Below are positions 3,025 to 34,691 of a stretch of DNA of 34,691 bases, piece by piece. The stretch covers positions 1-34,691 of the IMG/VR virus record IMGVR_UViG_3300028048_000053. One strand, given 5' to 3'. The stretch is from a virus. The notes beneath the pieces are model-generated. The model saw nothing but the letters and a program-made list of their open reading frames with translations, searched no databases and had not been told where the DNA came from. How positions within the stretch are numbered: position 1 is the stretch's first letter; every line of letters starts with the position of its first letter. The translations under genes and the position numbers were made by a program.

Positions 3025-3212
3025 TCCTCCTCATTTTTTGCATAATTATGCGGCCGCGCGCCACCGGCCCTAGCGCGCGGTTTTTGCATAAATATTCACT
3101 TTTCAGCAATTTTTTGTATAAATATTCATTGTAACACTTTGTAACCATTTTCCCAAAAAACTGTAACTATTTTGTTATTGACTTCTGGCTTACTTTGTGC
3201 TATACTTTAATC

Positions 3213-3315
3213 AAGGTTGAGGGGCGAAAACAAGATAACAACAGGGACTTGTAACTGCCCGATAAAGAAAAGATAGAAAAGGACTTTTCCAGCTATCCCC
3301 GCCCCTCAAAAAACT
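3213..3315 (+). ncRNA. candidate sRNA: promoter (TTGACT 3178-3183, TATACT 3201-3206) to structured ~100-nt transcript with no ORF
   Basis: long-range pairing GAGGGGCG(3218)...CGCCCCTC(3298); no start codon or SD. Confidence 0.35.
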
Positions 3316-3379
3316 TGAAAAAAATGAAAAAAAGGCTTGACAAACTCAAAAAGGTATGCTATAATAAGAGCGTAATCAA

Positions 3380-3397
3380 GGAGAGCTGATAAACTCC
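3380..3397 (+). promoter_or_regulatory. 5'-UTR hairpin family 1 (GGAG/CTCC, loop AGCTGATAAA)
   Basis: identical to 1243-1260 element. Confidence 0.6.
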
Positions 3398-3421
3398 ACA
3401 AACAGAGAAAAGGAGAAAATT

Positions 3422-3631: not shown

Positions 3632-3886
3632 TCTTTCCACCATATATAGAGGCCATTCCCACTAAGCGAGAAGCCGTGGCCAGGAGGAAATAACGAAAAG
3701 GGATAAATACTCCAAAATGTCAACTTCTCATAGGAGGGGGGCTCTTGCCCCTCTCCTTTTCTACTCACCCTCGCGCTTTCTGACGCCAGCGCGAGGAGTT
3801 TAGATTTATATATAGATTACACAATTTTTACCCTATTTTTTTGTGCATATTGTCTACTTGATTTTTTCCTGCATCTATGCTATACT

Positions 3887-3995
3887 TTAATCATCAAGGG
3901 GCGGTGACGCTGACCGGCGGGAAGCAGATACCAAGGTAGCTACAAAGGAAAACAGAAACACGGCTTGTGAAGACACACCGACAAAATTTTTTGGA
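3887..3995 (+). ncRNA. candidate sRNA cassette (promoter TTGATT 3858-3863 / TATACT 3881-3886, no ORF)
   Basis: promoter consensus then ~100 nt lacking an ORF, ending in a hairpin plus T6. Confidence 0.3.
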
Positions 3996-4047
3996 GAAAT
4001 TCAAAAAACCCCTTGACAAACCCATGAAAGTGTGCTATAATAAAGGC

Positions 4048-4373
4048 ACAAGGTCAAGAGGGGAACCGAACAGGACGAAGTAAGGCACCGCGGATGACCC
4101 GAAAAGCGACGAGAGGTTGATAAAAGCTTGATACCCTCTTGACTGTCCACTTAAATAGCACTTCAACTATCAGGCAGACGGAGGTGTCGGAAAGATGTTT
4201 ACGAGCGGATTTCTGTAGCAACTGAATAAGCTGTAGAAAAACGTAAATGTAGGAACGGAGGCAGCTTCTAATGTATTGGTCTGGATTTGTGTAGCTACAA
4301 TTAAATGATGTGTTTTCGATAGGCCGGGACGATGCTTGCGCCCCGGCCTATCGCCCGGGCAAAAAACTTTTTT
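4048..4373 (+). ncRNA. candidate ~300-nt non-coding transcript (promoter TTGACA 4013-4018 / TATAAT 4036-4041) ending in a 12-bp perfect hairpin terminator (4310-4347) + GCCCGGGC + T-tract
   Basis: no ORF with SD on + strand; the minus-strand ORF 4170..4694 spans promoters and terminators and is judged spurious. Confidence 0.35.
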
Positions 4374-4733: not shown

Positions 4734-4801
4734 CCCAAAAATTTTTCAACTTTTTTCACAAAACCTATTGACATTTCAGAAAAACCTGCTATAATAGGTA
4801 G

Positions 4802-4880
4802 TGTCAAGGGGAGAAGAAAACAACCTCTCACAGGCGCGTAACCTGTTGTAAGTAAAATAAAATCTCTCATAAAAATGTAA
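4802..4880 (+). ncRNA. candidate short transcript from promoter TTGACA 4768-4773 / TATAAT 4790-4795 with no ORF
   Basis: hairpin ACAGG-cgcgtaa-CCTGT; no SD or ATG. Confidence 0.25.
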
Positions 4881-4927
4881 AAAACCCCTTGACAATTCCC
4901 CGTAAGTGTGTTATACTTAAACCATCA

Positions 4928-4947
4928 AAGGGAGCTGATAAACCCTT
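4928..4947 (+). promoter_or_regulatory. 5'-UTR hairpin family 1 (AAGGG/CCCTT, loop AGCTGATAAA)
   Basis: identical to 402-421 element. Confidence 0.6.
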
Positions 4948-4971
4948 GAAAACAGAGAAAAGGAGAACGCT

Positions 4972-8935: not shown

Positions 8936-9091
8936 TAAAATGGGGGGATTCAATCCCCCATTTTATTTTTCATAGCGAGTTAGCAATGGCTAACTTTTTC
9001 GCCCGGGCGATTAGCAAATTGCACAAAAAATAAACGATGTTTTTGTGCAAAATCCCATCTTGCAAAATGGGGGTAGGTCGTGCTATACTAT

Positions 9092-9170
9092 AATTGTTCC
9101 AAGGGGGAAGGCAAACAGCGAAAGCCTTTAGCGAGGTAGGACACTTCCCCCAACGGAACGAAAAAAATTT
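9092..9170 (+). ncRNA. candidate sRNA (CCAAGGGGGAAGGCAAACAG...ACACTTCCCCC family) from promoter TTGCAA 9045-9050 / TATACT 9080-9085
   Basis: no ORF; 8-bp stem GGGGGAAG/CTTCCCCC; two related copies at 13496-13600. Confidence 0.35.
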
Positions 9171-9295
9171 AAAAAAGGTCTTGACAAGCCGCTGAAAGTG
9201 TGCTATAATAAGACCGTAAGTGAGAGAGAGAAAATCTCCACTCCACCGCCTTGCCGCTACTAAAAGGCGTAAGAATCTGGTAGCACCACAAAGGG

Positions 9296-9311
9296 TAGTG
9301 ACCTACCACTA
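9296..9311 (+). promoter_or_regulatory. 5'-UTR hairpin family 2 (stem TAGTG/CACTA, loop ACCTAC) abutting AAAGGAG
   Basis: covarying copies at 13683-13698, 15560-15575, 17185-17200, 17614-17629. Confidence 0.55.
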
Positions 9312-9326
9312 AAGGAGTTGTGTACT

Positions 9327-9695
9327 ATGACTACTTCTAAGATGACCTACAAGACCGCTATCGAGTACGCTATCCGCAACCTGCCTGCCGATGCCCCTGT
9401 CGAGGTGACGGACAAGCTGACCGCCCTTATCACTTCCCTGGAGAAGAAGAGCGGCGCCGAGCGCAAGCCCACCGCCACGCAGGTGGCGAACGAGGGCTAT
9501 AAGGCCGCCATCATGGAGTACCTTTCCGATGTGGGCGAGCCCAAGACCGTGGGCGACATTCTGAAAGAGGTTCCTGCGGTGGCTGGCTTCTCTACCCCCA
9601 AGGTGTCCGCTCTGATGAAACAGCTCACCGAGGGCGGCGCTGTCGAGCGCTTGACTGACAAGCGCCGCACCTACTTCAAGGCGATTGTCGCCTAA
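9327..9695 (+). CDS. winged-helix-like DNA-binding protein (122 aa), paralog of 13714-14100
   Basis: C-terminal ~75 aa nearly identical to the paralog, including at nucleotide level; ORF track. Confidence 0.7.
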   Translation: MTTSKMTYKTAIEYAIRNLPADAPVEVTDKLTALITSLEKKSGAERKPTATQVANEGYKAAIMEYLSDVGEPKTVGDILKEVPAVAGFSTPKVSALMKQLTEGGAVERLTDKRRTYFKAIVA

Positions 9696-9853
9696 CCCCT
9701 GCGGGGGGTGGAGAAATCCACCCCCATTTTTTCCAAGGCGAGTTAGCGGCGGCTAACCGCCCGGGCGATTTAAATGTTGCCTGCGCAACATGAAAAATTC
9801 TTGACTTTTGGTTTCAATGTGGTATAATAAGACCGTGGAAAGGAGTTGATTTT

Positions 9854-10216
9854 TTGGATGAAAAACGCATAGCCCTCTTGATGAAACAGCTTGACATTTC
9901 CAGGGATGAAGCAATCGAAGTCTTGAAAGAGGACAGCGAAATTGACAAGGGCGCAGAACTGTTTGAACTAACCCCCGAACAGAAACAGGTCGAAAAGAAA
10001 ATGCGCCAAGCTGACCGCAAAGTGACTGCCTATAGCTGGAAACCAAGAGAGCGCAAACCCAACGAAACCAAAAGAAAGCTAATTCAAGATTTGGCCTTAA
10101 CCCTGCATCATAATCCTATGGTAGATAGCTGGGAAATCACCAATCAAGAACGGCAAATTGATTTTGAGTGCAACGGCACCAAATATCGTATCATTCTGAG
10201 CGCCCCCCGCAAATAG
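9854..10216 (+). CDS. hypothetical protein (120 aa), paralog of 12613-13014; TTG start; terminates with TAG
   Basis: AGGAG 8 nt before TTG 9854 (the only ATG nearby hits a stop after 4 codons); ends at the same relative point as the paralog, so TAG 10214-10216 acts as a true stop here. Confidence 0.6.
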   Translation: MDEKRIALLMKQLDISRDEAIEVLKEDSEIDKGAELFELTPEQKQVEKKMRQADRKVTAYSWKPRERKPNETKRKLIQDLALTLHHNPMVDSWEITNQERQIDFECNGTKYRIILSAPRK

Positions 10217-10410
10217 GGGGCGCTTTTCATTTTGAATAATTATTCACTTCCTTTGAGCCGCTGGCGCACGGGCGCGTGCCAGCGGTGTTCGGCGCAATCA
10301 GCACTTTCCACAAAAAACGTTGCGAAAATTTGTGCAATTTGCCATCTTGCTTTTTTCCTGAAATGTGCTATACTATAATCACAAAAGGAAAAGAAAAGGA
10401 GATGCTTCAA

Positions 10411-10686
10411 ATGATGTTCAATGATGCTGTGTATGTGGGTCGCGAGTGCCCGTTCTGCGGTGAGTACCACGAGGTACTTGTCAGCGAGGCTGACTTTGCC
10501 GCGTGGCAGGGTGGGGAGTTGGTGCAGGACGCCTTCCCCTATCTCTCCGCTGACGAGAGGGAAATCCTTGTCAGCGGCATCTGTCCCAAGTGTTGGGCAG
10601 AGACCTTTGGCGAGGAGGGAGACGAGGAGGAGGAGTGCTTTGAGCCTGGTCGCCCCTGCGTCAACATGTTTGAGCTGAACCCCTAA
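10411..10686 (+). CDS. Zn-ribbon protein (CPFCG...CPKCW), 91 aa
   Basis: ATG 10411 is 9 nt after AAGGAG; in frame with ORF 10276..10686. Confidence 0.65.
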   Translation: MMFNDAVYVGRECPFCGEYHEVLVSEADFAAWQGGELVQDAFPYLSADEREILVSGICPKCWAETFGEEGDEEEECFEPGRPCVNMFELNP

Positions 10687-10796
10687 TTATGGGGTTTAGT
10701 CGCCCGGGCGCAATTATGTAAACCAAAAAAATCTGAAAAAATTTCAAAAAAGGTATTGACATTTACGCCCCCCTGTGCTATACTATAATTGTTCCA

Positions 10797-11335
10797 AGGG
10801 AGTGGCCATTGACCAAGGAACTGTGGAGGGAAGCCAACATCGGCCCTGCGAGTACCAAATAATGATTGTTGGTGACGGTTAGACGCTTAAGTTGCTATGC
10901 GAACAAACACTTTCTCAAATAGCAGAAAGGGGTTAGAGACAGCAGAGCCACCCTTTTTTAGGCAGTTTTTTCCTGTGGCGTTCAAGGAAAAAATATTCTG
11001 ACTTTTTTAGTGTTCATCTGGTCATTCTTCACCAAACACTGGATTTTTCAAGAGGAAAGAATCTAAAAATAATTGGAAGAAACTGAATACTTTTAGGCAG
11101 TTTTCAATTCAGTCGCTGTGATAGAAAGAAACTCCCCCTTGCGGGGGCGGTGAGGTTAGTAAGGTAAGAGCTAACGGCTTATTGGGTCGAGCCGCTGAAT
11201 ATCAACATCCGCCCCCCAATAAGGGATATTTAAATACCTCTCTACTTTTTGTAGTGCTCCTTTTCTTTCTCTCTTTCTTTCTGTGGCGTGGGTAGGATTT
11301 TCCTACCCTTGCGCCCGGGCGAAAAATTTTTTGCC
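10797..11335 (+). ncRNA. ~540-nt apparently non-coding transcribed region between a consensus promoter (TTGACA 10761-10766) and terminator 11288-11335
   Basis: no ORF with SD; several long-range stems (CTTATTGGG...CCCAATAAG, CCCCC-ttg-CGGGGG); ORF 11283..11471 spans the next promoter and is judged spurious. Confidence 0.3.
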
Positions 11336-11412
11336 CCAATCAAATTTTCCCCTTGACATTTATAAAAAAATATGTTATTATAATAGTACAAAAAGAAAGG
11401 AGATAATAAACA

Positions 11413-11577
11413 ATGACAAACGCTATTTTGATTATCCTCTGCGTGTATTTTGCGGCTTCGGCCCTTGTTGATGCCGCAAAAGCAGACCGCAATCCCTGCT
11501 GGTCTACCTGCCTTGATGTGGTCTTTGACCTGGCTCTGCTGGTGGGCGTGTTTCATTTGATGGAGGTATTTTGCTGA
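11413..11577 (+). CDS. small membrane protein (54 aa)
   Basis: AAAGGAGA SD + ATG 11413; stop TGA overlaps next ATG (TGATG). Confidence 0.55.
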   Translation: MTNAILIILCVYFAASALVDAAKADRNPCWSTCLDVVFDLALLVGVFHLMEVFC

Positions 11578-12056
11578 TGAATACCGCAATTTTGCTTTTT
11601 GTCATTTGCACTCTTGCAAATGTTGTCATTGCGACTATCAAAAGTGTAATGACCATCAAGGGCGGCAAGGTTGCCGCTTCCATCTGGAACGCTCTCAGCT
11701 ATGGCCTTTACTCCTACATTGTGATAATGACCGCAAACGCCGACATTTCCACGCTCGGCAAGGTTTTAATCACCGTAGGCTGTAACTTAATCGGCGTGTT
11801 TTTCGTTAAGTTAGTAGAGGAAAAGATGCGAAAAGATCGCCTGTGGAAAATTGAAATGACAATTTATTCCACCAACGCCGACAAGATGCACCAAGAACTG
11901 GAAAATGCTGGTATCCCCAATAACTATGTAATTGCAGGCCGCCATGCTATTTTTAATTGTTTCTGCGATACTCAAAGTGACAGCGCAAACGCCCTTGCTA
12001 TTGGCAAGACCTACAACGCAAAAACTTTTGCATCAGAAACAAAACTTAATCCCTAA
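11577..12056 (+). CDS. membrane protein with soluble C-terminal domain (159 aa)
   Basis: ORF track 11571..12056; ATG 11577 translationally coupled; 3 hydrophobic segments. Confidence 0.65.
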   Translation: MNTAILLFVICTLANVVIATIKSVMTIKGGKVAASIWNALSYGLYSYIVIMTANADISTLGKVLITVGCNLIGVFFVKLVEEKMRKDRLWKIEMTIYSTNADKMHQELENAGIPNNYVIAGRHAIFNCFCDTQSDSANALAIGKTYNAKTFASETKLNP

Positions 12057-12116
12057 CGGCATTCCCCGCCTCGGCGGGGATGTTGCCCGGGCGCAAAAAA
12101 ATTTTTAAAAAAAGTC

Positions 12117-12145
12117 TTGACAAACTGCGCAAAGTACACTATACT
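12117..12145 (+). promoter_or_regulatory. class I promoter TTGACA-N17-TATACT
   Basis: -35 12117-12122; -10 12140-12145. Confidence 0.65.
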
Positions 12146-12179
12146 GTCTACAGAAACCAAGAGAAAAGGAGATACCAAA

Positions 12180-12494
12180 ATGAAAAAGGGTTTTGTTTCC
12201 ACGATGCGCAAGGGATTCCACATGACCTTCCCCAACGGCCTGACCGTTTCCGTCCAGTGGGGTGCTGGCAACTACTGCGACAACCACTTCCCCAAGGATA
12301 TGGATTTCACCTTCTCCAAGGACGCCGAAAGCGATACTGCCGAGGTTGCTGTCATCGATCCGCAGGGTGAGTTCCTTGACCCTCAGCGGTTTTTTGACTA
12401 TGAAATCAGATCTGACGGCATGGTGGCTGGCTGGCTCGACCCCTCGCAGGTTGTTGAACTGTTGGCGAATGCGCGCGACTGGCCTAACATCTAA
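12180..12494 (+). CDS. hypothetical protein (104 aa)
   Basis: AAAAGGAGA SD; ATG 12180 in frame with ORF 12117..12494. Confidence 0.7.
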   Translation: MKKGFVSTMRKGFHMTFPNGLTVSVQWGAGNYCDNHFPKDMDFTFSKDAESDTAEVAVIDPQGEFLDPQRFFDYEIRSDGMVAGWLDPSQVVELLANARDWPNI

Positions 12495-12612
12495 GGCCAG
12501 TCTTTCGCCCGGGCACGCATAAACATTCACTGAAACTGAATAAAAATTCTTCTTGACATTTGTTTATAGGTGTGCTATACTATGTATAGTCCAGGAGAAA
12601 GGAGAGGTAGTA

Positions 12613-13014
12613 ATGGCAAGACAGTCCGCTAAAGAGCGTGAAGCGCAGATTGAGCGCACGATGAAAGCCCTTGAAGTCACAAGGGAAGAAGCCCTTGAAA
12701 TCCTCGCAGAAGATGACGAGATTGACAAGGGCGCAGATCTTCACCCCTTGACCCCCGAACAGGAAAAAGTTGTTAAAAAGATGCGGCAGGCTGACCGCAA
12801 GCCCACGGTCTACAACTGGCAGAAAAAGCGTGAGCGTAAGCCCAACGAACTCAAAAGAGAAATCATCGACGATTTGTTCGGTTTCTTTTGCGAGAACTGG
12901 CCAGAAGTGGCAAAGAATGGAAACATCATCAACCCCGAAAGACAGATTGACTTTGAGCTTGGAGGGGAGAGCTTTTCCATCACTCTGACCCAGCACCGCA
13001 AACCCAAGGCGTAA
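12613..13014 (+). CDS. hypothetical protein (133 aa), paralog of 9854-10216
   Basis: shared block EIDKGA.L..LTPEQ..V.KKMRQADRK......W...RERKPNE.KR.II and a C-terminal ERQIDFE motif. Confidence 0.7.
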   Translation: MARQSAKEREAQIERTMKALEVTREEALEILAEDDEIDKGADLHPLTPEQEKVVKKMRQADRKPTVYNWQKKRERKPNELKREIIDDLFGFFCENWPEVAKNGNIINPERQIDFELGGESFSITLTQHRKPKA

Positions 13015-13134
13015 GGCGTAAGGGGGGAACATTTGTTCCCCTATCTGCGCCCGGGCGGCCGCAAACTGCACAATTTTAATACTCTGTTTTTGTGCAAAAC
13101 ACCATCTTGCTTTTTTAAGATAGTGTGCTATAAT

Positions 13135-13215
13135 AATAATTGTCAAGGGGCTGTAAACCGCGGGGCATCCAAATAAGTCCTGTACTGCGTGGTAAGAAAT
13201 TTCAAAAAGTTTTTT
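13135..13215 (+). ncRNA. candidate sRNA or leader between promoter (TTGCTT 13100-13105 / TATAAT 13123-13128) and tRNA-Lys
   Basis: no ORF; AT hairpin TTTCAAAAA-g-TTTTTGAAA at the 3' end. Confidence 0.3.
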
Positions 13216-13239
13216 TTTGAAAATCCCCTTGACAAACTT

Positions 13240-13314
13240 GCGGCCATGGTGTAATTGGTAACACAGTAGACTTTTAATCTATCATTCGGGGTTCAAGTCC
13301 CCGTGGTCGCACCA
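13240..13314 (+). tRNA. tRNA-Lys (anticodon UUU), CCA encoded
   Basis: manual cloverleaf: acceptor GCGGCCA/TGGTCGC, D stem GTGT/ACAC, anticodon stem GTAGA/TCTAT with loop CTTTTAA, T stem CGGGG/CCCCG with loop TTCAAGT. Confidence 0.8.
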
Positions 13315-13495
13315 ATTCCTTTCCTTTTTATTATCTCTCTCTTTCTTACAAAGAACCCTGCTAAAGCGATTTAGTGGGGTTTCTTTGTAGAATCGCCCGG
13401 GCGACTGGCAAAATGCACAAAACAATTTCTAAAATTCTATCTCATTTTGTGCATTTTGCCTATTGTAATCTGTGCGCCCTTGTGCTATACTATAA

Positions 13496-13600
13496 TCGTT
13501 CCAAGGGGGAAGGCAAACAGCGTTAGGACACTTCTTCAAAGGGGGAAGGCAAACAGTGACAGGGCACTTCCCCCCTCGGACGCCGAAAAAAATTCCAAAA
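13496..13600 (+). ncRNA. two tandem copies of the CCAAGGGGGAAGGCAAACAG sRNA-like motif from promoter TTGCCT 13455-13460 / TATACT 13478-13483
   Basis: sequence family shared with 9092-9170. Confidence 0.3.
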
Positions 13601-13713
13601 AACTCTTGACAAGCCGCTTTGAGTGTGCTATAATAATGGTGTCAATGAGGGAAGCCCCTCTTGAACATAAAAAAAATATGGGTAGCGACCTACCGCTAAA
13701 GGAGTTGTGTACT

Positions 13714-14100
13714 ATGACTAACACCAAGATGACCTACAGCAAGGCTATTGCCGCCTGTATCGACCTGCTGACCACTGGCGAGACTTCTGAGAATCCCACC
13801 GAAATCGTGGAGAAGCTGACCGCCCTCTCCGAGAGCCTTGCGAAGAAGTCTGGGGCTGAGCGCAAGCCGACTGCGACCCAGGTTGCCAACGAGGGCTATA
13901 AGGCGGAGATTCTCGCCTATCTGCGTGATGTGGCCGAGCCTAAGACTGTGGGCGACATTCTCAAGGAAGTCCCCGCCGTGGCTGGTTTCTCCACTCCCAA
14001 GGTATCTGCCCTCATGAAGCAGTTGGTTGACGAGGGTAACGGCCCCGTCGAGCGTCTGACCGACAAGCGGCGCACCTACTTCCGCATCAAGGCGGAGTAA
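13714..14100 (+). CDS. winged-helix-like DNA-binding protein (128 aa), paralog of 9327-9695
   Basis: family-2 leader; ATG 13714 in frame with ORF 13447..14100. Confidence 0.7.
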   Translation: MTNTKMTYSKAIAACIDLLTTGETSENPTEIVEKLTALSESLAKKSGAERKPTATQVANEGYKAEILAYLRDVAEPKTVGDILKEVPAVAGFSTPKVSALMKQLVDEGNGPVERLTDKRRTYFRIKAE

Positions 14101-14240
14101 GCCCCCTGCGCCCATCCCCTCCCCTGCAATAGTGGGGGAGGGGCGCGCCCGGGCGAAAAAAATTTTTTTTAAAAACCCCTTGACAAACCTCTATAAATGT
14201 GCTATACTTTAGATGTTCCAAGAGGAAAGGAGAGAGTGTA

Positions 14241-14480
14241 ATGGAAAAGAAGTTTAACATGGTAGTGACCCTTACCAATGGTAAAGTCCTGCGCCACTAC
14301 GGACTTTCCTTGCGCATGGCGGCAACTATGAAATTGCACTATCAAGAGAAGTACCCTAACACCCTTGAAGAAATCGAAACCGTTTACGCAGGGACGAACA
14401 AAAGAGCTACGGCGCTTTGCTATTTCATTGAAGATGGAGAAAACGATCCTATCGCTTTCTATGAGCGTTACGGCTGGTAA
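14241..14480 (+). CDS. hypothetical protein (79 aa)
   Basis: class I promoter 14183-14215; AAAGGAGAG SD; in frame with ORF 14199..14480. Confidence 0.7.
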   Translation: MEKKFNMVVTLTNGKVLRHYGLSLRMAATMKLHYQEKYPNTLEEIETVYAGTNKRATALCYFIEDGENDPIAFYERYGW

Positions 14481-14494
14481 AAGGAGGAAATAAA

Positions 14495-14740
14495 ATGGCT
14501 ATTTCTATTAAGCGTGAAAAGAACGAGCGCGGCGTGACGGTCGGCTCTCTCAAAGTGGGCGACACTTTCATGTATGACAACCGTATCGGCGTTATCGTTG
14601 ACCGCAATGGTCACTGTTTTCCCATGGATTTTGCAACCTGTGCCACCTTTCACAAACATCCCTGGACATCCGAAGCACTTCTTCCGCAGGAGATTGTTCT
14701 GCCTATCGAGGTCGAAATGACTTGCAAGGTCGTGGGCTAA
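14495..14740 (+). CDS. hypothetical protein (81 aa)
   Basis: AAAGGAGGA SD then ATG 14495; ORF track. Confidence 0.75.
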   Translation: MAISIKREKNERGVTVGSLKVGDTFMYDNRIGVIVDRNGHCFPMDFATCATFHKHPWTSEALLPQEIVLPIEVEMTCKVVG

Positions 14741-14857
14741 GCCTTTCCCCGCTTCGGCGGGGAAATCGCCCGGGCAAAAAACTTTTTTCAAAAACCTATT
14801 GACATTTTCCTAAGTATGTGCTATACTATAATCACAAAAGGAAAGGAGATAATCAAA

Positions 14858-15130
14858 ATGACCTATTCCATCCAGATTTATCGCATGAATGCTGGCTCTT
14901 GGGAAACCTTTGTTCAGTTTACCCCCGTCGTCTTTGACGAAATGATCGAAGCTGGCAAGGCTATGTTCGTCAATCCTCTACTGTCTGCGGAGAATGTTGC
15001 TATCGTTGATGACACAACTGGCGAAGTTCTCTGGGATGCCTGTTCCGATGATGAGGACTGTGAGCCTGCGGACATTGATGATGATTGCGGCTTTGACCCC
15101 TACGAGGGCTGTTTCACCTACGACTGCTGA
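14858..15130 (+). CDS. hypothetical acidic, Cys-containing protein (90 aa)
   Basis: AAAGGAGA SD; ATG 14858 in frame with ORF 14816..15130. Confidence 0.7.
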   Translation: MTYSIQIYRMNAGSWETFVQFTPVVFDEMIEAGKAMFVNPLLSAENVAIVDDTTGEVLWDACSDDEDCEPADIDDDCGFDPYEGCFTYDC

Positions 15131-15244
15131 CCCCCTACAAGGGGGTCAGTTTGCCCGGGCGAAAAAATTTTTAAAAAGGTCTTGACAAACTCTCAGTAAT
15201 GTGTTATACTGTATTCAGAAATCAAAGGAAAGAGGGAATAAACC

Positions 15245-15457
15245 ATGGTGTGTCCTAAGTGCGGCCCTGGGGCAGCTGTAATGTCCGATGAGTGTATTGA
15301 TGTTGAGGAGTACGACGATGATAACATTGCCGTAACCTACGAGGGGACTTGTCTGTGGTGCAAACGCAAATACCAATGGACGGAAATCTATAAATATAGC
15401 CGTATCAAAAATATTATTGAAATTGGTACAGCTCCGCAGGAGGAAGAAGAGAACTAA
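15245..15457 (+). CDS. Zn-ribbon protein (CPKCG...CLWCK), 70 aa
   Basis: ORF track; class I promoter 15185-15215. Confidence 0.7.
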   Translation: MVCPKCGPGAAVMSDECIDVEEYDDDNIAVTYEGTCLWCKRKYQWTEIYKYSRIKNIIEIGTAPQEEEEN

Positions 15458-15589
15458 CCCCCCTCTTTTTCTTCCCCCTGCGCCCGGGCGCAAAAATTTT
15501 TTTTCAAAACCCCCTTGACAACCCTCCAAGAGTGTGTTATAATAAAGGCACATTGAGGGTGGTGGCCTAACACCAAAGGAGAATTTGTT

Positions 15590-16195
15590 ATGAACAAGAG
15601 TGACTTTTTCGAGCGTGAAATCCAGTTCATTGAGGACATTGACCTCCAAGACTTTGTTCGCTTTTTCTTCAATGAAAGATGCGGCGACTGGTTTTGGAAG
15701 TCTGGGGCTTCCAGTTCTGGGAAATATCATCCCCAGTTCACCAAGGGCGAGGGTGGACTTGTGCGCCATACTAAAGCCGTTGTGTGGGTCTGTGAGGAAC
15801 TTCTGCGCATGAGTTCCTACGCCTACATGAAAGACATTTACAAGGACTACGCAAGGGTCGCCTGCCTGCTTCACGATACACGCAAGTATGGCGGCGGGGA
15901 TGAAGAGGATAAAAGTTATTATCCACGTCATGGTGAAGCCGCCGCAAATGATGTTGGTGTGGCGTGGCGAGAGTTTTTCCACTGTCATTCCTGCCCCGAA
16001 TTGCTTTTGATGGCTATTCACTCCCACATGGGACAGTGGACGGAAAACAGAGAGGACAGACCCTTTACCAACATTGACCGCCTGGTACATCTGTCGGACT
16101 ACATCGCAAGCCGTCCTTTCTGGGACATTCCCGACATTACCACCGAATACAACGAAGCCAATGCAAAGATGATTGAAGATTCTCTGCCTTTCTAA
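15590..16195 (+). CDS. HD-domain phosphohydrolase (201 aa)
   Basis: H..H...LLHDTRKYG...H motif arrangement typical of the HD superfamily; family-2 leader; ORF track. Confidence 0.6.
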   Translation: MNKSDFFEREIQFIEDIDLQDFVRFFFNERCGDWFWKSGASSSGKYHPQFTKGEGGLVRHTKAVVWVCEELLRMSSYAYMKDIYKDYARVACLLHDTRKYGGGDEEDKSYYPRHGEAAANDVGVAWREFFHCHSCPELLLMAIHSHMGQWTENREDRPFTNIDRLVHLSDYIASRPFWDIPDITTEYNEANAKMIEDSLPF

Positions 16196-16286
16196 TCCCC
16201 CTCCCCTCTGTCCCAGTGACAGAGGGGAAATCGCCCGGGCGAAAATTTCCTCTTGACAAGAGGCCAAAAGTATGCTATACTGTATT

Positions 16287-16400
16287 TACAATTCACGGAG
16301 AAATCCGTTTTACATACCTGCGGACTGCCGAACAGGCTTTTTCCAAAATTTCTCATGGGCCTGCATAGGATAACATGACTTTCTGCGGGAATTTTTGAAA
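16287..16400 (+). ncRNA. candidate sRNA cassette (promoter TTGACA 16255-16260 / TATACT 16278-16283; no ORF)
   Basis: only very short ORFs; hairpins CGGAGAAATCCG and CCTGCGGACTGCCGAACAGG. Confidence 0.25.
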
Positions 16401-16466
16401 ATAATACTTGACAAACAAGCACAAGTATGTTATAATAAAGGCACAAAAAGGAAAGGAGATAATAAA

Positions 16467-16694
16467 ATGCTCGATCACATTGGCGGCATCCCCGATGGAC
16501 ACATTGTAGAGTTTCCGCACTCTGCGCGCACTTTCATGAAGGTCTGCACAAGAGATGGGCAGGGCGGAGTTGTTGACATCACTACAGGTGAGCTGATTAT
16601 GATAAGCGACCTGCCGCGATACGGTATTGATGTATGGTGCTCTGAGCACTACGGAGAAAGGGCTACTATTCAGTACGAAGTAGAGGACGATTGA
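16467..16694 (+). CDS. hypothetical protein (75 aa)
   Basis: AAAGGAGA SD; ATG 16467 in frame with ORF 16395..16694. Confidence 0.7.
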   Translation: MLDHIGGIPDGHIVEFPHSARTFMKVCTRDGQGGVVDITTGELIMISDLPRYGIDVWCSEHYGERATIQYEVEDD

Positions 16695-16793
16695 CCGTCC
16701 TCTTGGCCCGGGCGAAAAATTTTTTTAAAAACCTCTTGACAAGTGATTAGCTTTGTGCTATAATGAAGTCACAAAAGGAAAGGAGATACAAAA

Positions 16794-17075
16794 ATGAGAG
16801 CAACAGGTATTGTAAGACGCATTGATGACTTCGGCAGAGTTGTCATTCCGAGGGAAATTCGCAAAACTCTCAACATTCGCGAGGGCGACCCCCTCGAATT
16901 CTTCACCGACCCCGACGAGAGGGCTGTGTGCTTCAAGCCCTATCTGCCCTACTCCGAGCCGTGGCGTATGCTCGAAGATGCCGCAGAGACCATGCGTGAC
17001 AGCGAGGACTTTCACGAGTTCGCCGCCGATGTTTACGCCCTTGCGCGTAAGATTCGGAAATCTGCGCAGGGCTGA
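16794..17075 (+). CDS. AbrB/SpoVT/MazE-like regulator (93 aa), paralog of 1707-2000
   Basis: MRATGIVRRIDDFGRVVIPREIRKTLNIREGDPLEF matches the swapped-hairpin pattern. Confidence 0.7.
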   Translation: MRATGIVRRIDDFGRVVIPREIRKTLNIREGDPLEFFTDPDERAVCFKPYLPYSEPWRMLEDAAETMRDSEDFHEFAADVYALARKIRKSAQG

Positions 17076-17216
17076 TAAATACCCCCGCCTTGGCGGGGGA
17101 AATCGCCCGGGCGCAAAAGTTTTTTCAAAAAGGGCGTTGACAAAGGTATAATCTTGTGCTATAATATCAATGTAAACAAAAGGGTTGCGACCTAACGCAA
17201 GAAAGGAATTGATACT

Positions 17217-17510
17217 ATGAATTTCTGGATTGTTATTTTGACCATCTACATTTTCTTTACTATTACCCTGTTCTTTGTGTCTGCCGCTCAGGCGTTCGAA
17301 GTTCGGCGGCGTATCTACGCAAAAGTTGGTAAGAATTACTATGACTCTTTTTCCAAGCGAAGCATTGTTGAAAAAATTGTTAAACTTTTAACCAGCTTTT
17401 TCTTGTCTGCCATTCCTATTCTTAACTTTTTTGTAACTTTTCATGTGATTATTCATGCTGAGGAATTAGTAAATAGTAGTGTGCAGAAATGGCTTGCAGA
17501 ACATAAATAA
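17217..17510 (+). CDS. membrane protein (97 aa)
   Basis: family-2 leader; ORF track; two long hydrophobic segments. Confidence 0.65.
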   Translation: MNFWIVILTIYIFFTITLFFVSAAQAFEVRRRIYAKVGKNYYDSFSKRSIVEKIVKLLTSFFLSAIPILNFFVTFHVIIHAEELVNSSVQKWLAEHK

Positions 17511-17643
17511 GGGTAAGGGGGCTTAATGTCCCCTGCTGCCCGGGCGCTAAAAAAATCAAAAAAAGGTATTGACAAGCGGCGCAATCTGTGCTATACTATA
17601 CACAGTTAAGGGGTGGCGGCCAAACGCTAAAGGAGATAAAAAA

Positions 17644-17808
17644 ATGTTTTACGAACTGAGAGATGCGATTTTCAATCGTCTTGCCTGCTGGCTGATGAAG
17701 CACTGTCACTGTTGGTCGATGGTGTTCTATACCGCCTGCCGCAGATACTACCCTGCCAATGTAAAATGTATGTATGAATCATGGGCTGAGGAAATGGGGG
17801 TGAAGTGA
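17644..17808 (+). CDS. small Cys/His-rich protein (54 aa)
   Basis: family-2 leader + AAAGGAGA SD; in frame with ORF 17569..17808. Confidence 0.6.
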   Translation: MFYELRDAIFNRLACWLMKHCHCWSMVFYTACRRYYPANVKCMYESWAEEMGVK

Positions 17809-21029: not shown

Positions 21030-21227
21030 CTATTCTTTAGTTAAAAAACAAACATAAGAATCATGACTACAACTATCTAATTTATAATTACTATCTAATT
21101 TTGGCATCTGCTTAATTATATATTGGTATACAATATACATATTTTTTCGATTCAAACTTTTATGCTCACATTTCATACATTTTTCAAATTCTTCTTGTGA
21201 AACCAACTTTATAACCTCCTCATACAT
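21030..21227 (-). CDS. possible small Cys/His protein (65 aa)
   Basis: C-terminal part of minus ORF 21030..21548; upstream part of that ORF is the low-complexity repeat array. Confidence 0.3.
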   Translation of the reverse strand: MYEEVIKLVSQEEFEKCMKCEHKSLNRKNMYIVYQYIIKQMPKLDSNYKLDSCSHDSYVCFLTKE

Positions 21228-21239
21228 TACCGAGCATCC

Positions 21240-21510
21240 TAAAAATACAAAACTTGTTTTGTATTTTTTTGTACAAAAACTTGTTTTTTGTACAAAAAGT
21301 TGTAAAAATACAACATTTTTGTTGTATTGTAAGACTAAAGATAGCTTATACAAAAAATACAAAAATACAAAAATTCTTGTATCGTAGAGTCTAAAAACTA
21401 CAATTTTCGTACAAAAAACATAAGCATTTATACAAAAATACATAATAGATAAATACAATAAAAATACAATCGTACAATTTTCATACAAAAATTCGTACAA
21501 AAAATCTATA
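21240..21510. repeat. array of GTACAAAAA / TACAAAAATAC direct repeats interleaved with palindromes
   Basis: palindromes TACAAAAC-ttg-TTTTGTA, GTACAAAAA-cttg-TTTTTTGTAC, AATACAACA-ttttt-GTTGTATT read directly. Confidence 0.65.
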
Positions 21511-21511
21511 A

Positions 21512-21886
21512 TCAAAATATAGCATTGGGGTCCTTGCGTTGTACCCATCCTTTTTTATGCTGTATAGTATTCAACTTTACTCCAAAATAATCGGCTATCT
21601 CTTGCGCGCTCATATTATTTCTAGCCATTTTGTATACTTCGGCATCGGTAACTTTGAGACGAACTTTGCCTCCGTTGCGCTTTTCTTCATACTTAGCAAT
21701 ACTGACATCTATACGCCCCTTCAATAAATTTACATAAGAGTTTATACTGGGGTCATCCGTATATTTCTATTCTAAACGACAGCCATATCTGATTAAATCA
21801 GCAATGATTTTGTCCTAACTTTCCACTGGCAACTAATCAATAGCTTCTAACCAATCACTGTGTACAATAAAAGTATTATCAGCCAT
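21512..21886 (-). CDS. HTH protein (124 codons; possible ArpU/RinA-like sigma-region-4-type regulator) with three in-frame TAG codons
   Basis: ATG 21886-21884 preceded by AAGGGGGA SD; in-frame TAG at 21833-35, 21815-17, 21767-69 (plus coordinates); no TAA/TGA for 124 codons in AT-rich DNA; C-terminal ORF 21512..21724 alone has no start or SD. Confidence 0.55.
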
Positions 21887-32729: not shown

Positions 32730-32816
32730 GGGTCGGTATCCCGTAGCAGGTAGCGGTTCTGGCTGTAAATCAGGTGTCTAGCGACTCGGTTGGTTCGATC
32801 CCAACCCGGCCCACCA
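32730..32816 (+). tRNA. tRNA-Tyr (GUA), class II long variable arm, CCA encoded
   Basis: manual fold: acceptor GGGTCGG/CCGGCCC, anticodon loop CTGTAAA, variable stem GTC/GAC, T arm GTTGG-TTCGATC-CCAAC. Confidence 0.7.
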
Positions 32817-32909
32817 ATCGCCCTATTGGCAGACTAAAACAGAATCTATGCAATAGTATTGGCGCTGTGTCTACTGATATGGCGTCACTGTATGGTGAAG
32901 GAGATTATT

Positions 32910-33095
32910 ATGCATACCTTTCATTCTCAGGATAAATACAATTTCCATCACAATGGAGATTTTTCCGGTGACGTGATAATCACTAAGGATGATGACACTA
33001 ATTTTGAAATTGAAATTAGTAGTCAAGCTCTTCTTGAATATGCTCGTTATGTAATTGACTCTGTTCTTACAGAAAAAATTGAAGACATTATGTAA
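32910..33095 (+). CDS. hypothetical protein (61 aa) between tRNA-Tyr and tRNA-His
   Basis: GAAGGAGATTATTATG; in frame with ORF 32859..33095. Confidence 0.55.
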   Translation: MHTFHSQDKYNFHHNGDFSGDVIITKDDDTNFEIEISSQALLEYARYVIDSVLTEKIEDIM

Positions 33096-33096
33096 T

Positions 33097-33174
33097 GGTG
33101 GGAGTAGCTTAGTTGGCTAAAGCACCAGATTGTGGCTCTGGGGACCGCGGGTTCAAGACCCGTCTCTCACCCCA
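33097..33174 (+). tRNA. tRNA-His (GUG) with encoded G-1 pairing to C73, CCA encoded
   Basis: manual fold: acceptor GTGGGAG/CTCTCAC, anticodon stem CCAGA/TCTGG with loop TTGTGGC, T arm GCGGG-TTCAAGA-CCCGT. Confidence 0.7.
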
Positions 33175-33215
33175 TTTATGCCTCCTTAGCTCAGCTGGTC
33201 AGAGCACGCGGCTGT

Positions 33216-33682
33216 TTGCCTGACCTTACATTCTTGATGAAAAAGAAAAATGAATAGTAAGCAAAAAGGCAATATTACTGAATTAGAAACAATGTTAGCG
33301 TTTTTAAAACATGGTTTTAATGTTTTAACTCCTTATGGAGATTGTGAAAGATATGATTTTGTAGTAGACGCTAACAGAAAGTTTTATCGAATTCAGAGTA
33401 AAACAGCAAGCACAGAAGACGATGGAGCTTCGTTTAAGTTTTCTTGTAGGAGCTCAAATCGTCAAGATGGTAGAATAGTCCATCACCAATATACAAAAGA
33501 TGAAATTGACTATTTCGTAACTTCTTTTGAAGGAAAATGTTATTTAATTCCAGTTGAAGAATGTGGTTGTGATAAACGACTTCGTCTTTTTCCTACTAAA
33601 AATGGACAAACAAGAGGAATAAGCTGGGCAAAAGATTATGAAATGGAGGAAGTAATCAAGAATTGGTAAGCTGATGTGCAAG
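33216..33682 (+). mobile_element. 467-bp insertion in the tRNA-Asp anticodon loop carrying an endonuclease-like ORF; group-I-intron-like boundaries (5' exon ends in T, insertion ends in G)
   Basis: boundaries inferred from tRNA cloverleaf; only ~47 nt of the insertion lie outside the ORF, so the intron class is unresolved. Confidence 0.5.
33250..33669 (+). CDS. putative homing endonuclease of the PD-(D/E)XK / Hjc-like fold (139 aa) encoded inside the tRNA-Asp insertion
   Basis: pattern E11..LK.GF.V..P.GD..RYDFVVD....FYRIQSK resembles small restriction-endonuclease-fold nucleases; ORF track. Confidence 0.45.
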   Translation: MNSKQKGNITELETMLAFLKHGFNVLTPYGDCERYDFVVDANRKFYRIQSKTASTEDDGASFKFSCRSSNRQDGRIVHHQYTKDEIDYFVTSFEGKCYLIPVEECGCDKRLRLFPTKNGQTRGISWAKDYEMEEVIKNW

Positions 33683-33906
33683 CAACCGCGGTGTCGTAGG
33701 TTCGAATCCTACAGGAGGCGCCAGGCCCGTGGATCCGAGGGCACAGTATCGGACAAAATACGCTGGCATATCGTAGAGAGTGCGCAATCTCAAATATGCG
33801 ATACCGCTATTCGTTGGGGCGGGATATAAATGCAGCAACGACAGGTCGCTTGAACCTGATTGATCCTGTCGGCGGTACGGGAGAAGAAAAGCATCCGCTG
33901 TTTTAT

Positions 33907-33982
33907 AGGGGATTGGTGTAGTAGGGAGCATCTGCGCCTCCAAAGCGTTAGAGAGAGGGTCCGAGTCCTTCATCCCCTGCCA
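33907..33982 (+). tRNA. possible tRNA-Trp (CCA), weak (several G-U pairs, T-loop TCCGAGT)
   Basis: acceptor AGGGGAT/ATCCCCT perfect, discriminator G, CCA encoded, anticodon loop CTCCAAA; D and T arms non-canonical. Confidence 0.35.
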
Positions 33983-34256
33983 ATAGTGAGTCGTTTAAGC
34001 AAGACTGCGGCCATGGTAACGCAATGTTGGGTAGCGACCGGCACCAACCTCACTATTATATGCCTCGGTAGTTTAGCAAGTAAAACGGTGGACACATATT
34101 TTTATGTGGCTGCAAGTGGATGGAGCGTGGCCGTCTCGGGGCACCAACGGCAAGGTGGCGTAGCGTGAGCTACAAGTGCGAATGACTGAACGCACTAAAA
34201 ACTGGCAATGGGCAAGCCTTCTGTATAGTAAAACCAAGAAGTCTATTTTTTAATAT

Positions 34257-34331
34257 GCCGGGGTCATATAGTGGTTAGTATGCGGAACTGATAATTCCGT
34301 CATGGCAGTCCGACTCTGCCCCCTGGCACCA
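34257..34331 (+). tRNA. tRNA-Ile (GAU), CCA encoded
   Basis: acceptor GCCGGGG/CCCTGGC, anticodon stem CGGAA/TTCCG with loop CTGATAA, T arm GGCAG-TCCGACT-CTGCC. Confidence 0.7.
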
Positions 34332-34413
34332 TAAATCTCAGCTGAGATAGGGATAGCTCTGCGTTTGGAGTAGCATTTCAGTCGTCGGGGGCGGAGCGCT
34401 GAGATTTTTATAT

Positions 34414-34489
34414 CCCGCTGTAGCACAATCGGTCAGTGCCGGCAACTTATAATTGTCAGATGCTGGTTCAAATCCAGACAGCGGGACCA
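34414..34489 (+). tRNA. tRNA-Ile (UAU) (AUA decoder), CCA encoded
   Basis: acceptor CCCGCTG/CAGCGGG, D arm GCAC..GTGC, anticodon stem GGCAA/TTGTC with loop CTTATAA. Confidence 0.55.
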
Positions 34490-34569
34490 AAAACCTTGTT
34501 AGTTAGTGGAGAATAGCAGCGAGGTTTGCATTAAATTAATAAAGACACATACAGCAATTTATACTTGAA

Positions 34570-34640
34570 AGTATATTAGTCCAATGGTAGGACGCAAAAG
34601 TTTTAATTTTGAAGAATTGGTTCAAATCCAATATTTACTT
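34570..34640 (+). pseudogene. degenerate tRNA-like sequence (anticodon loop GTTTTAA, Lys-UUU-like) lacking CCA, with an acceptor mismatch
   Basis: D stem GTCC/GGAC, anticodon stem CAAAA/TTTTG, T arm ATTGG-TTCAAAT-CCAAT; acceptor AGTATAT/ATTTACT has 1 mismatch. Confidence 0.3.
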
Positions 34641-34691
34641 TTTGGTGTCTTGATTTTTATAAAAAAATATAATATAATAATTATAGAAAAG

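Follow-up and report, generated by a model that had tools for sequence, protein, structure and literature searches.

The preQ1-I riboswitch aptamer is the smallest known natural H-type pseudoknot regulator and is found in Firmicutes. The boxB/nut elements of lambdoid phages have a covarying stem of 5 bp and a small loop that is conserved; they are located in leaders just downstream of early promoters, in terminator-rich genomes. Here we describe a small hairpin that shares features with both, in IMG/VR virus record IMGVR_UViG_3300028048_000053, positions 1 to 34,691 of which (34,691 nucleotides, hereafter the window) were analysed as a whole. In this uncultured gut or rumen phage, five early genes carry the hairpin just 5' of their ribosome-binding site, every copy being located downstream of a sigma-70 promoter and upstream of a strong Shine-Dalgarno (SD) sequence.

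Other leader elements have parts of this arrangement. The gene 43 and gene 32 operators of phages T4 and RB69 are hairpins or pseudoknots in the leader, 5' of the ribosome-binding site, whose loops contain conserved nucleotides. Each acts on the translation initiation of a single gene and is autoregulatory, the gene's own product being bound about 40-70 nt upstream of the start codon (PMC3014915). The 5' stabilisers of Gram-positive Firmicutes (5' stem-loops, STAB-SD, hbs leader) associate a structure with a very strong SD (PMC5737220, PMC3997798); they lie at the 5' end or within a few nt of it, and their sequence is not conserved. The motif bound by the S6:S18 complex in rpsF leaders presents an unpaired CC(R) on a small structure 2-3 nt from the SD, the CCR being bulged out of a long irregular hairpin in which the SD is included (PMC3854524). 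Finally, the PeSL cassettes of T4-like phages form arrays of small early open reading frames (ORFs), each with its own consensus promoter and a stem-loop that is the upstream terminator, and are exchanged from gene to gene (PMC2839356, PMC4122927).

Literature searches brought up no described motif of the present kind. Searching the window against Rfam 15 at gathering thresholds returned only tRNAs, and searches at E <= 10 with positions 13590-17680 and with a 61-nt query gave no meaningful overlap with the hairpins. The element is uncatalogued and absent from Rfam; it is also real and widespread.

Conservation and covariation of the hairpin

The five copies of the window follow, on the + strand, a consensus numbered throughout as G1 G2 G3 (5' flank), U4 N5 G6 Y7 G8 (5' arm), R9 C10 C11 W12 A13 M14 (loop) and C15 R16 C17 N18 A19 (3' arm). 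They had been pointed out by a sequence-only reading of the window, and all five were located exactly at the + strand coordinates it gave (Table 1), each preceded by GGG as it had claimed. Using the consensus GGGTNGYGRCCWAMCRCNA and allowing at most one mismatch, the matches in the window were these five copies and no other site; the same search on 100 dinucleotide-preserving shuffles of the window yielded 0 matches. A scan for any RCCWAM loop with at least 4 nested flanking pairs returned the five copies, one minus-strand site and two + strand sites at 21197 and 22559, the latter two lacking both GGG and SD and being unrelated to the hairpin copies.

Some details of the initial description had to be adjusted. 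AAAGGAG was said to follow each hairpin directly, which fails for copy 4, whose stem is followed by GAAAGGAA instead. The ATG start codons were confirmed at about the announced spacing (8-10 nt), namely 8-9 nt after GGAG or GGAA. The stem was said to differ at three positions, always with compensation; within the window, only two of the five pairs vary (5-18 and 7-16), the remaining three being invariant. The second pair is A-U, A-U, G-C, U-A and G·U in copies 1 to 5, respectively, so that copy 5 departs from Watson-Crick pairing, and the fourth pair is U-A or C-G.

Neither megablast nor tblastn identified a relative of the window phage in GenBank, and its 560-aa protein had no match in GenBank phages. 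Related contigs of 63-240 kb were found in IMG/VR, and homologues of the HD-domain protein encoded downstream of copy 3 number more than 2,600 in gut and rumen assemblies. The loci of the relatives were fetched via this HD protein, a sampling that is independent of the hairpin motif. The orthologous and paralogous leaders so recovered exhibit the stems TAGTG, TAGCG, TGGCG, TGGTG and TTGTG, each with a matching 3' arm. The HD leader GGG-UGGUG-GCC(U/G)A(A)-CAC(C/U)A is kept in most relatives, with loops of 5-6 nt; among the exceptions one has C4 and one lacks the loop CC, and in a more distant relative the hairpin is absent from the HD leader, which is plain. Leaders of the winged-helix paralogues, the genes found downstream of copies 1 and 2, use the stems UAGUG, UAGCG, UGGCG, UGGUG, UUGUG and UUGCG with matching 3' arms, the recurrent exception being an A·C mismatch in UAGCG/CGCCA. 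The core of copy 2 is identical in relatives L001 and L005, and the leader of copy 5 is identical in L002, L004, L361 and L377 despite an unrelated promoter spacer and ORF.

Free-stem scans brought up copies by the dozen, from relatives, from unrelated contigs of IMG/VR and of metagenomes, and from genomes of Bacillaceae and Clostridia. In the IMG/VR scan, GGG, U4, G8, RCC, A13, C15 and AAGGAG were fixed and three stem pairs were left free; all three were formed in 64 of the 116 matches, against 5% expected by chance. The 116 matches correspond to 88 distinct contexts, of which those leading into a start codon with an ORF of 50 aa or more were retained. Thirty-seven retained contexts are fully paired, 4 more are fully paired with a 7-nt loop and 3 have a single mismatch, those left over among the 88 being GC-rich chance matches. 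A large IMG/VR group is located mid-operon in human-gut phage contigs, before a 150-200-aa protein without assigned function; the recurrent 203-aa downstream protein of human-gut phage contigs matched, among GenBank phages, only unannotated human-faecal phage records. The scan of bacterial genomes gave 72 matches, 15 of them fully paired, of which 8 resemble genuine leaders. Five of these are in cultured strains (Fictibacillus nanhaiensis NRS-1152, Metabacillus sp. Hm71, Metabacillus arenae IB182487, Lederbergia citrisecunda BD-136 and Clostridium rectalis Marseille-P4200), the others in two metagenome-assembled genomes of Clostridia and one SR1 contig. The Bacillaceae copies are located within a ribonucleotide-reductase/thymidylate-synthase prophage-type region, and the protein encoded downstream had no match in GenBank phages. 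A BLAST search of GenBank phages with a 49-nt instance of the motif returned only noise, the last 50 kb of SPbeta contain no copy, and searching the motif-downstream genes against PHROGs and Pfam revealed no shared function.

Among 36 distinct cores, 97.2% of the stem cells are paired, compared with 20-71% in slid-register controls. Double-sided changes affect three of the five pairs, with five kinds of pair at 5-18, GC or AU at 6-17 and UA or CG at 7-16, and G·U pairs occur as U4·G19 (7 times) and G5·U18 (3 times). The stem, formed by pairs 4-19 to 8-15, always closes with G8-C15; the loop, of 5-7 nt, always starts with R9-C10-C11 and always includes A13. In front of the element there is always G1-G2-G3 together with an A/U-rich tract, A/U making up 85-95% of the 9 nt upstream; beyond these, no conserved box was found upstream. 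A strong Firmicute-type SD always follows 1-3 nt after the stem and is itself followed by the start codon, and this stem-SD distance is constant despite a variable distance to the promoter (17-87 nt) or to the upstream stop codon. Comparative evidence thus shows that the element is a conserved sense-strand RNA structure. On the two points that the sequence-only reading had proposed for its refutation, additional copies proved 97% paired with three covarying pairs and occasional single mismatches, and related phages do carry the element; its central claim of a covarying RNA hairpin family fused to the SD before unrelated genes stands.

As an inverted repeat between promoter and gene, located before putative DNA-binding winged-helix genes, and with leader cassettes that are clearly shuffled between genes, the element could also be thought of as a palindrome in the DNA to which a dimeric repressor binds, or as a functionless relic of ancestry or cassette transfer. 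Both ideas are scarcely credible, the covariation having already largely refuted them. Nine stem sequences with matching partners would not be tolerated by a protein reading DNA half-sites, and the G·U pairs, possible only in sense RNA, argue against a DNA palindrome; moreover, the loop is asymmetric and the relation to the SD is strict in strand and distance. The invariant nucleotides also persist while stems, promoter spacer and ORFs diverge.

A separate lineage of SD-adjacent hairpins, UAGUG-GAUUAY-CACUA-AAGGAG, without the GGG/CC signature, was observed in metagenome contigs (L211, L215, L222, L235, L244, L254, L255, L260, L262, L273, L287, L307 and L310). It overlaps the final part of one conserved ORF, and the ORFs that follow it begin with MVRIP or MAKK.

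Pseudoknot model and putative function

The conserved 5' GGG is complementary to the loop CC. Their association was assessed by scans in which positions 1-3 and 9-12 were free, using the fixed stems TAGTG and TGATG plus a degenerate stem, and filtering on stem pairing, A/U-rich upstream tract and start-codon spacing only. Out of 28 leader-like contexts, 15 were GGG/ACC, 3 were AGG/RCU, 0 were mixed and 10 had neither signature. The AGG/RCU loci (L208, L264 and L360) display two different stems and three different loops, and no tblastx similarity was detected among them. In alignment A3, G1-C11 is found 34 times and A1-U11 twice, to which L360 is added. The joint change of G1 to A and C11 to U is compensatory and fits a pairing of G1 with C11 and G2 with C10. 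From this we infer that G1-G2 may pair with C11-C10, closing the hairpin into a 19-nt H-type pseudoknot that would be composed of S1 (GG:CC, 2 bp), L1 (G3), S2 (the 5-bp stem), L2 (R9) and L3 (N-A-N, 2-4 nt). This register is sterically reasonable under the usual loop-length rules of H-type pseudoknots and would account for every invariant nucleotide. The RCC is always on the 5' side of the loop, the 3' side varying from 2 to 4 nt.

Three other pairings were rejected. The register 1-12/2-11/3-10 fits the AGG/RCU variants less well than 1-11/2-10. A sequestering pseudoknot between the loop CCU and the SD AGG would have to span the 5-bp stem with a linker of 1-2 nt, which is too short. Finally, a split SD, in which GGG and AAGGAG would be read across the hairpin by the 16S tail CUCCUU-UCU, needs G·U pairs where AGA would be better.

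Regarding function, which we can only propose as a putative role in cis, we tentatively favour, with somewhat less than even confidence, a translation-initiation-region module read by the host machinery. A compact rigid knot would abut the SD:anti-SD helix and be read by the host 30S subunit, keeping the rate of initiation high and independent of context; with a ribosome bound to the SD, it could also shield the message from 5'-to-3' decay. The 30S subunit is favoured since the motif precedes genes without relation to one another, in phages that are likewise unrelated and in prophage-like regions of Bacillaceae and Clostridia, so that the common partner would be the host machinery. The unvarying closeness of stem and SD speaks for this role too, as does the copy 5 leader, unchanged among relatives whose promoter spacer and ORF differ. 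SD sequestration would have no part in this action. The sequence-only reading had suggested that the hairpin occludes or presents the SD depending on a bound factor or on folding kinetics. As the SD is outside the stem in every copy and in-silico mutation of either arm leaves its predicted accessibility unchanged, occlusion and simple unmasking are both unsupported, and nothing tested here gave a sign of a switch, of a bound factor or of folding kinetics.

Several observations weigh against the favoured cis-acting knot. The unchanged SD accessibility is one of them. Invariant G3, U4 and A13 are not obviously needed by a purely structural cis role. The S1 pairing is drawn from one covarying pair at three loci and, by a rough estimate from nearest-neighbour stacking and the standard pseudoknot penalty, a 2-bp S1 would not be stable. 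The isolated stems are themselves weak, at -4.8 to -7.1 kcal/mol and no better than shuffled sequence (z-scores from -0.3 to -0.9); the evidence for the element is therefore comparative, and thermodynamics alone would not pick out these hairpins. Copies 1, 3 and 4 are predicted to fold with the SD paired to the opening codons of the ORF it serves. The hairpin is also missing from some orthologous genes (the HD leader of L365, the winged-helix leaders of L006 and L008), which indicates that the element is modular and not essential. In the predicted folds of copies 1 and 2, an alternative GGUAG/CUACC pairing competes with the hairpin. The regions of pairing between SD and first codons are 9312-9345, 15576-15610 and 17202-17240, as exemplified in copy 4 by AGGAAUU with AAUUUCU.

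The joint change from GGG/RCC to AGG/RCU is explained equally well by co-evolution with a trans factor, such as a variant RNA-binding protein. The element would in that case be the operator, of the MS2 or gp43 type, of a sequence-specific translational repressor or activator, which would recognise the unpaired GGG, the R-C-C-N-A loop and the shape of the stem, and by binding on the side of the SD would block or recruit the 30S subunit; 5 of the roughly 45 early leaders would thereby form a small post-transcriptional regulon. Precedents exist in the T4/RB69 gp43 and gp32 operators (PMC3014915). Nucleotides that are invariant in the loop and flank, next to a freely covarying stem, are the classic signature of a protein-bound hairpin, only a subset of the early leaders has the element and, within the clade, it is most constant before the winged-helix paralogue family, which suggests autoregulation. 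We nevertheless consider such an operator somewhat unlikely, for the motif occurs in unrelated phages and prophages, before genes without assigned function and, in one recurrent case, mid-operon. Among the motif loci, winged-helix homologues were found only in the clade of the window and in L096, and none in the other loci, which are short. If one protein served all copies, it would therefore have to come from the host, and we know of no host protein with such specificity.

The position of the element within the leader, behind an A/U-rich tract and G residues, has another possible explanation. RNase Y cuts after a G in A/U-rich sequence with a hairpin a few nt downstream, a layout that the order A/U tract, G residues, hairpin resembles (PMC11780869, PMC11321564, PMC5449607). 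The element could thus be a processing or stability module, cut in the A/U tract or GGG by RNase Y or another host endonuclease, after which the hairpin or knot and the ribosome would block RNase J1, leaving a downstream message that is stable and highly translated. Ribosomes on strong SDs do block this enzyme (PMC5737220), the distribution of the motif is confined to Firmicute-type contexts, and the operon-internal and long-leader copies would need a newly made 5' end. Yet a G directly 3' of the cut, and specifically GGU, is among the poorest RNase Y contexts in S. aureus and B. subtilis (PMC11321564). As an obstacle to an exonuclease, a 5-bp stem worth -5 to -7 kcal/mol is feeble, and the invariant loop CC and A13 are left unexplained; we regard processing as improbable.

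Early-gene setting and family 1 leaders

The coordinates of the copies, of their promoters and of the downstream genes are given in Table 1. From the -10 box to the hairpin the distance is 17-20 nt in copies 3-5, 49 nt in copy 2 and 87 nt in copy 1. Assuming a start site about 7 nt after the -10 box, copies 3-5 would have about 7-10 unpaired nt 5' of the hairpin. With 87 and 49 nt between them and the -10 box, copies 1 and 2 are not 5'-terminal structures; in both, a second hairpin is present closer to the 5' end of the transcript. The gene assignments of the sequence-only reading hold broadly: the HD domain is recognised by Pfam (E = 1.6e-6), and the winged-helix call derives from Penicillinase_R, matched weakly, and from a PHROG annotated 'transcriptional regulator'.

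Table 1. Positions of the hairpin copies, associated promoters and genes, and related leaders in the window.
Feature	Position	Strand	Description
Copy 1	9293..9317	+	GGG 9293-9295; stem-loop TAGTG-ACCTAC-CACTA 9296-9311; SD AAGGAG 9312-9317
Copy 2	13680..13704	+	GGG; stem-loop TAGCG-ACCTAC-CGCTA 13683-13698; SD AAGGAG
Copy 3	15557..15581	+	GGG; stem-loop TGGTG-GCCTAA-CACCA 15560-15575; SD AAGGAG
Copy 4	17182..17208	+	GGG; stem-loop TTGCG-ACCTAA-CGCAA 17185-17200; then G + AAAGGAA
Copy 5	17611..17635	+	GGG; stem-loop TGGCG-GCCAAA-CGCTA 17614-17629, one G·U pair; SD AAGGAG
Copy 1 promoter	9181..9209	+	Consensus sigma-70, TTGACA-17-TATAAT, TG extension
Copy 2 promoter	13606..13634	+	Consensus
Copy 3 promoter	15515..15543	+	Consensus
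Copy 4 promoter	17137..17165	+	Consensus
Copy 5 promoter	17569..17597	+	TTGACA-17-TATACT
Winged-helix paralogue, 122 aa	9327..9695	+	Downstream of copy 1; ATG at 9327
Winged-helix paralogue, 128 aa	13714..14100	+	Downstream of copy 2; ATG at 13714
HD-domain protein, 201 aa	15590..16195	+	Downstream of copy 3; ATG at 15590
Small hydrophobic (membrane) protein, 97 aa	17217..17510	+	Downstream of copy 4; ATG at 17217
Small Cys-rich protein, 54 aa	17644..17808	+	Downstream of copy 5; ATG at 17644
Family 1 leaders	about 395-440, 1235-1285, 3375-3420, 4925-4970		Also in relatives L002-L005, L108, L361-L382
Winged-helix family members	9327-9695, 13714-14100, probably ORFs after 3337 and 4889		Also in relatives

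The sequence-only reading had distinguished the present element, as family 2, from another family of leaders, and this distinction was upheld. Family 1 leaders have the form AAGGG-AGCUGA(U)AA-CCCUU-(A-rich)-CAGAGAAAGG and no match in Rfam. The loop CUG is associated with a downstream CAG 10 times, CCG with CGG 4 times and CUG with CGG (a wobble) once, with no C·A mismatch, which points to an H-type pseudoknot with an A-rich L3 and a layout like that of preQ1-I. Family 1 would thus share its H-type topology with family 2 on independent covariation, in agreement with the knot proposed for the latter. Both families are alternative leaders within one winged-helix paralogue family, which has a conserved ERKPTAKQ motif and 3-4 copies per 20 kb and uses three leader types: a plain GGGG/CCCC hairpin, family 1 and family 2.

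The two families could then be two versions of one minimal class of SD-abutting H-type pseudoknot riboregulators, widespread in Firmicute phages and prophages, that would gate early-gene translation without pairing to the SD, as an enhancer of docking on the 30S platform or as a sensor of a protein or ligand, family 2 being at 19 nt the smallest natural regulatory pseudoknot. We judge this unification unlikely. Still less probable, to the point of being very doubtful, is that family 2 is a ligand-responsive mini-riboswitch whose pseudoknot junction (G3, R9 and A13) binds a small molecule and alters 30S docking. The H-type topology, the invariant junction nucleotides, the SD directly 3' of the second helix, and the preQ1-I-like A-rich L3 and covarying P2 of the sister family 1 speak for it. 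However, 19 nt would be far below any known aptamer size, neither helix includes the SD, the functions of the downstream genes are unrelated and reveal no metabolic theme, and no riboswitch model of Rfam was matched, even at E = 10 on the 61-nt query.

Between positions 1 and 19,700, the window contains about 45 near-consensus sigma-70 promoters (TTGACA-17-TGnTATAAT/TATACT), all on the + strand and each preceding a short ORF, with intrinsic terminators following many of them; the hairpin is present in 5 of these early leaders. This series of promoters, ORFs and terminators resembles a PeSL-like cassette array, and the relatives swap leader cassettes between unrelated genes. An SD-to-ATG spacer, (U/G)U(G/A)(U/A)AUACU-AUG, is kept across the different leader types of the clade (9318-9329, 13705-13716 and 17209-17219 in the window, and relatives) and resembles the TATACT -10 box of the same clade.

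Two promoter-driven noncoding units, 9089-9170 and 13491-13600, share a conserved core GGGGGAAGGCAAACAG(Y)G...AGGRCACUUCCCCC and have no Rfam match; the unit at 13491 is tandem, and an orthologue is present in L001 and L005. Since they hold GGUAGG and GCGUUAGG, complementary to the loops of copies 1, 2 and 4, they were considered as trans-acting phage small RNAs. This idea was rejected, the orthologous unit in L001/L005 having GCGGCAGGGCAC, which does not match the ACCUAC loop of its neighbour. Elsewhere, consensus promoters are followed by 100-200 nt without plausible ORF or SD (3206-3330, 3886-4010, 4041-4200, 4795-4880 and 10784-11000), and these stretches may be further small RNAs. A tRNA-Lys(UUU) has its own promoter about 100 nt upstream (13107-13314), and six further tRNAs (Tyr, His, Trp, Ile-GAU, Ile-UAU and Lys) are clustered at the right end of the window (32730-34641). 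Between 20000 and 22000, the GC content falls to 29% and the GC skew is strongly negative, with a minus-strand ORF at 21030-21548; in relatives, the matching region encodes DUF6291/HTH and GIY-YIG genes on the minus strand.

If the proposed role holds, the element would be a new, short and sharply defined RNA motif recurring before the ribosome-binding sites of unrelated Gram-positive phages, and a portable candidate part of about 25 nt for expression control in Bacillus and Clostridium engineering. It would also point to a possible mechanism in which a structure that does not contact the SD by pairing still sets translation or mRNA stability. The dense promoter/leader cassettes of uncultured jumbo phages hold several putative pseudoknot-type leaders for one paralogous gene family, so that leader-level regulation of phage early genes becomes directly testable.

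Comparison with described systems

With preQ1-I the element shares a 5-bp helix, a loop that would pair with a flanking strand and the H-type pseudoknot that would result, placed against the SD. The short helix would use the 5' flank (GG:CC) here, whereas preQ1-I uses its 3' A-rich tail; the SD is outside both helices and L2 offers no ligand-pairing C. An A-rich-tail P2 over the SD is not found, the stem-SD gap being only 1-3 nt, and in place of queuosine or 7-deazaguanine genes the downstream genes encode winged-helix, HD-domain, membrane, Cys-rich and assorted unknown proteins. The element likewise recalls boxB by its 5-bp covarying stem and its small conserved loop near early promoters. It differs in having a loop R-C-C-N-A(-N), an absolute link to the SD and many operon-internal copies, whereas boxB has a GNRA-like pentaloop and an adjacent boxA and is not tied to an SD in any fixed way.

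The gene 43 and gene 32 operators are similar in being structured phage leaders 5' of the ribosome-binding site; unlike them, the element touches the SD and is found before many unrelated genes in many phage lineages. With the Firmicute stabilisers the element has in common the association of a structure and a very strong SD, as well as a plausible protection against RNase J1, the element being distinguished by its location 7-90 nt from the inferred 5' end and by its invariant nucleotides. Compared with the S6:S18 motif, the CC is in a hexaloop rather than in a bulge, the SD is outside the structure, the position after CC is unconstrained and the gene context is other than rpsF. In contrast to the stem-loop of the PeSL cassettes, the hairpin is an SD-fused leader structure with a conserved loop, and unlike SD-sequestering thermometers and translational switches it does not pair the SD in a regulated helix. 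The element thus resembles preQ1-I in its proposed topology, the T4 gp43/gp32 operators in location, boxB in size and the Firmicute stabilisers in host range, while lacking a defining feature of each.

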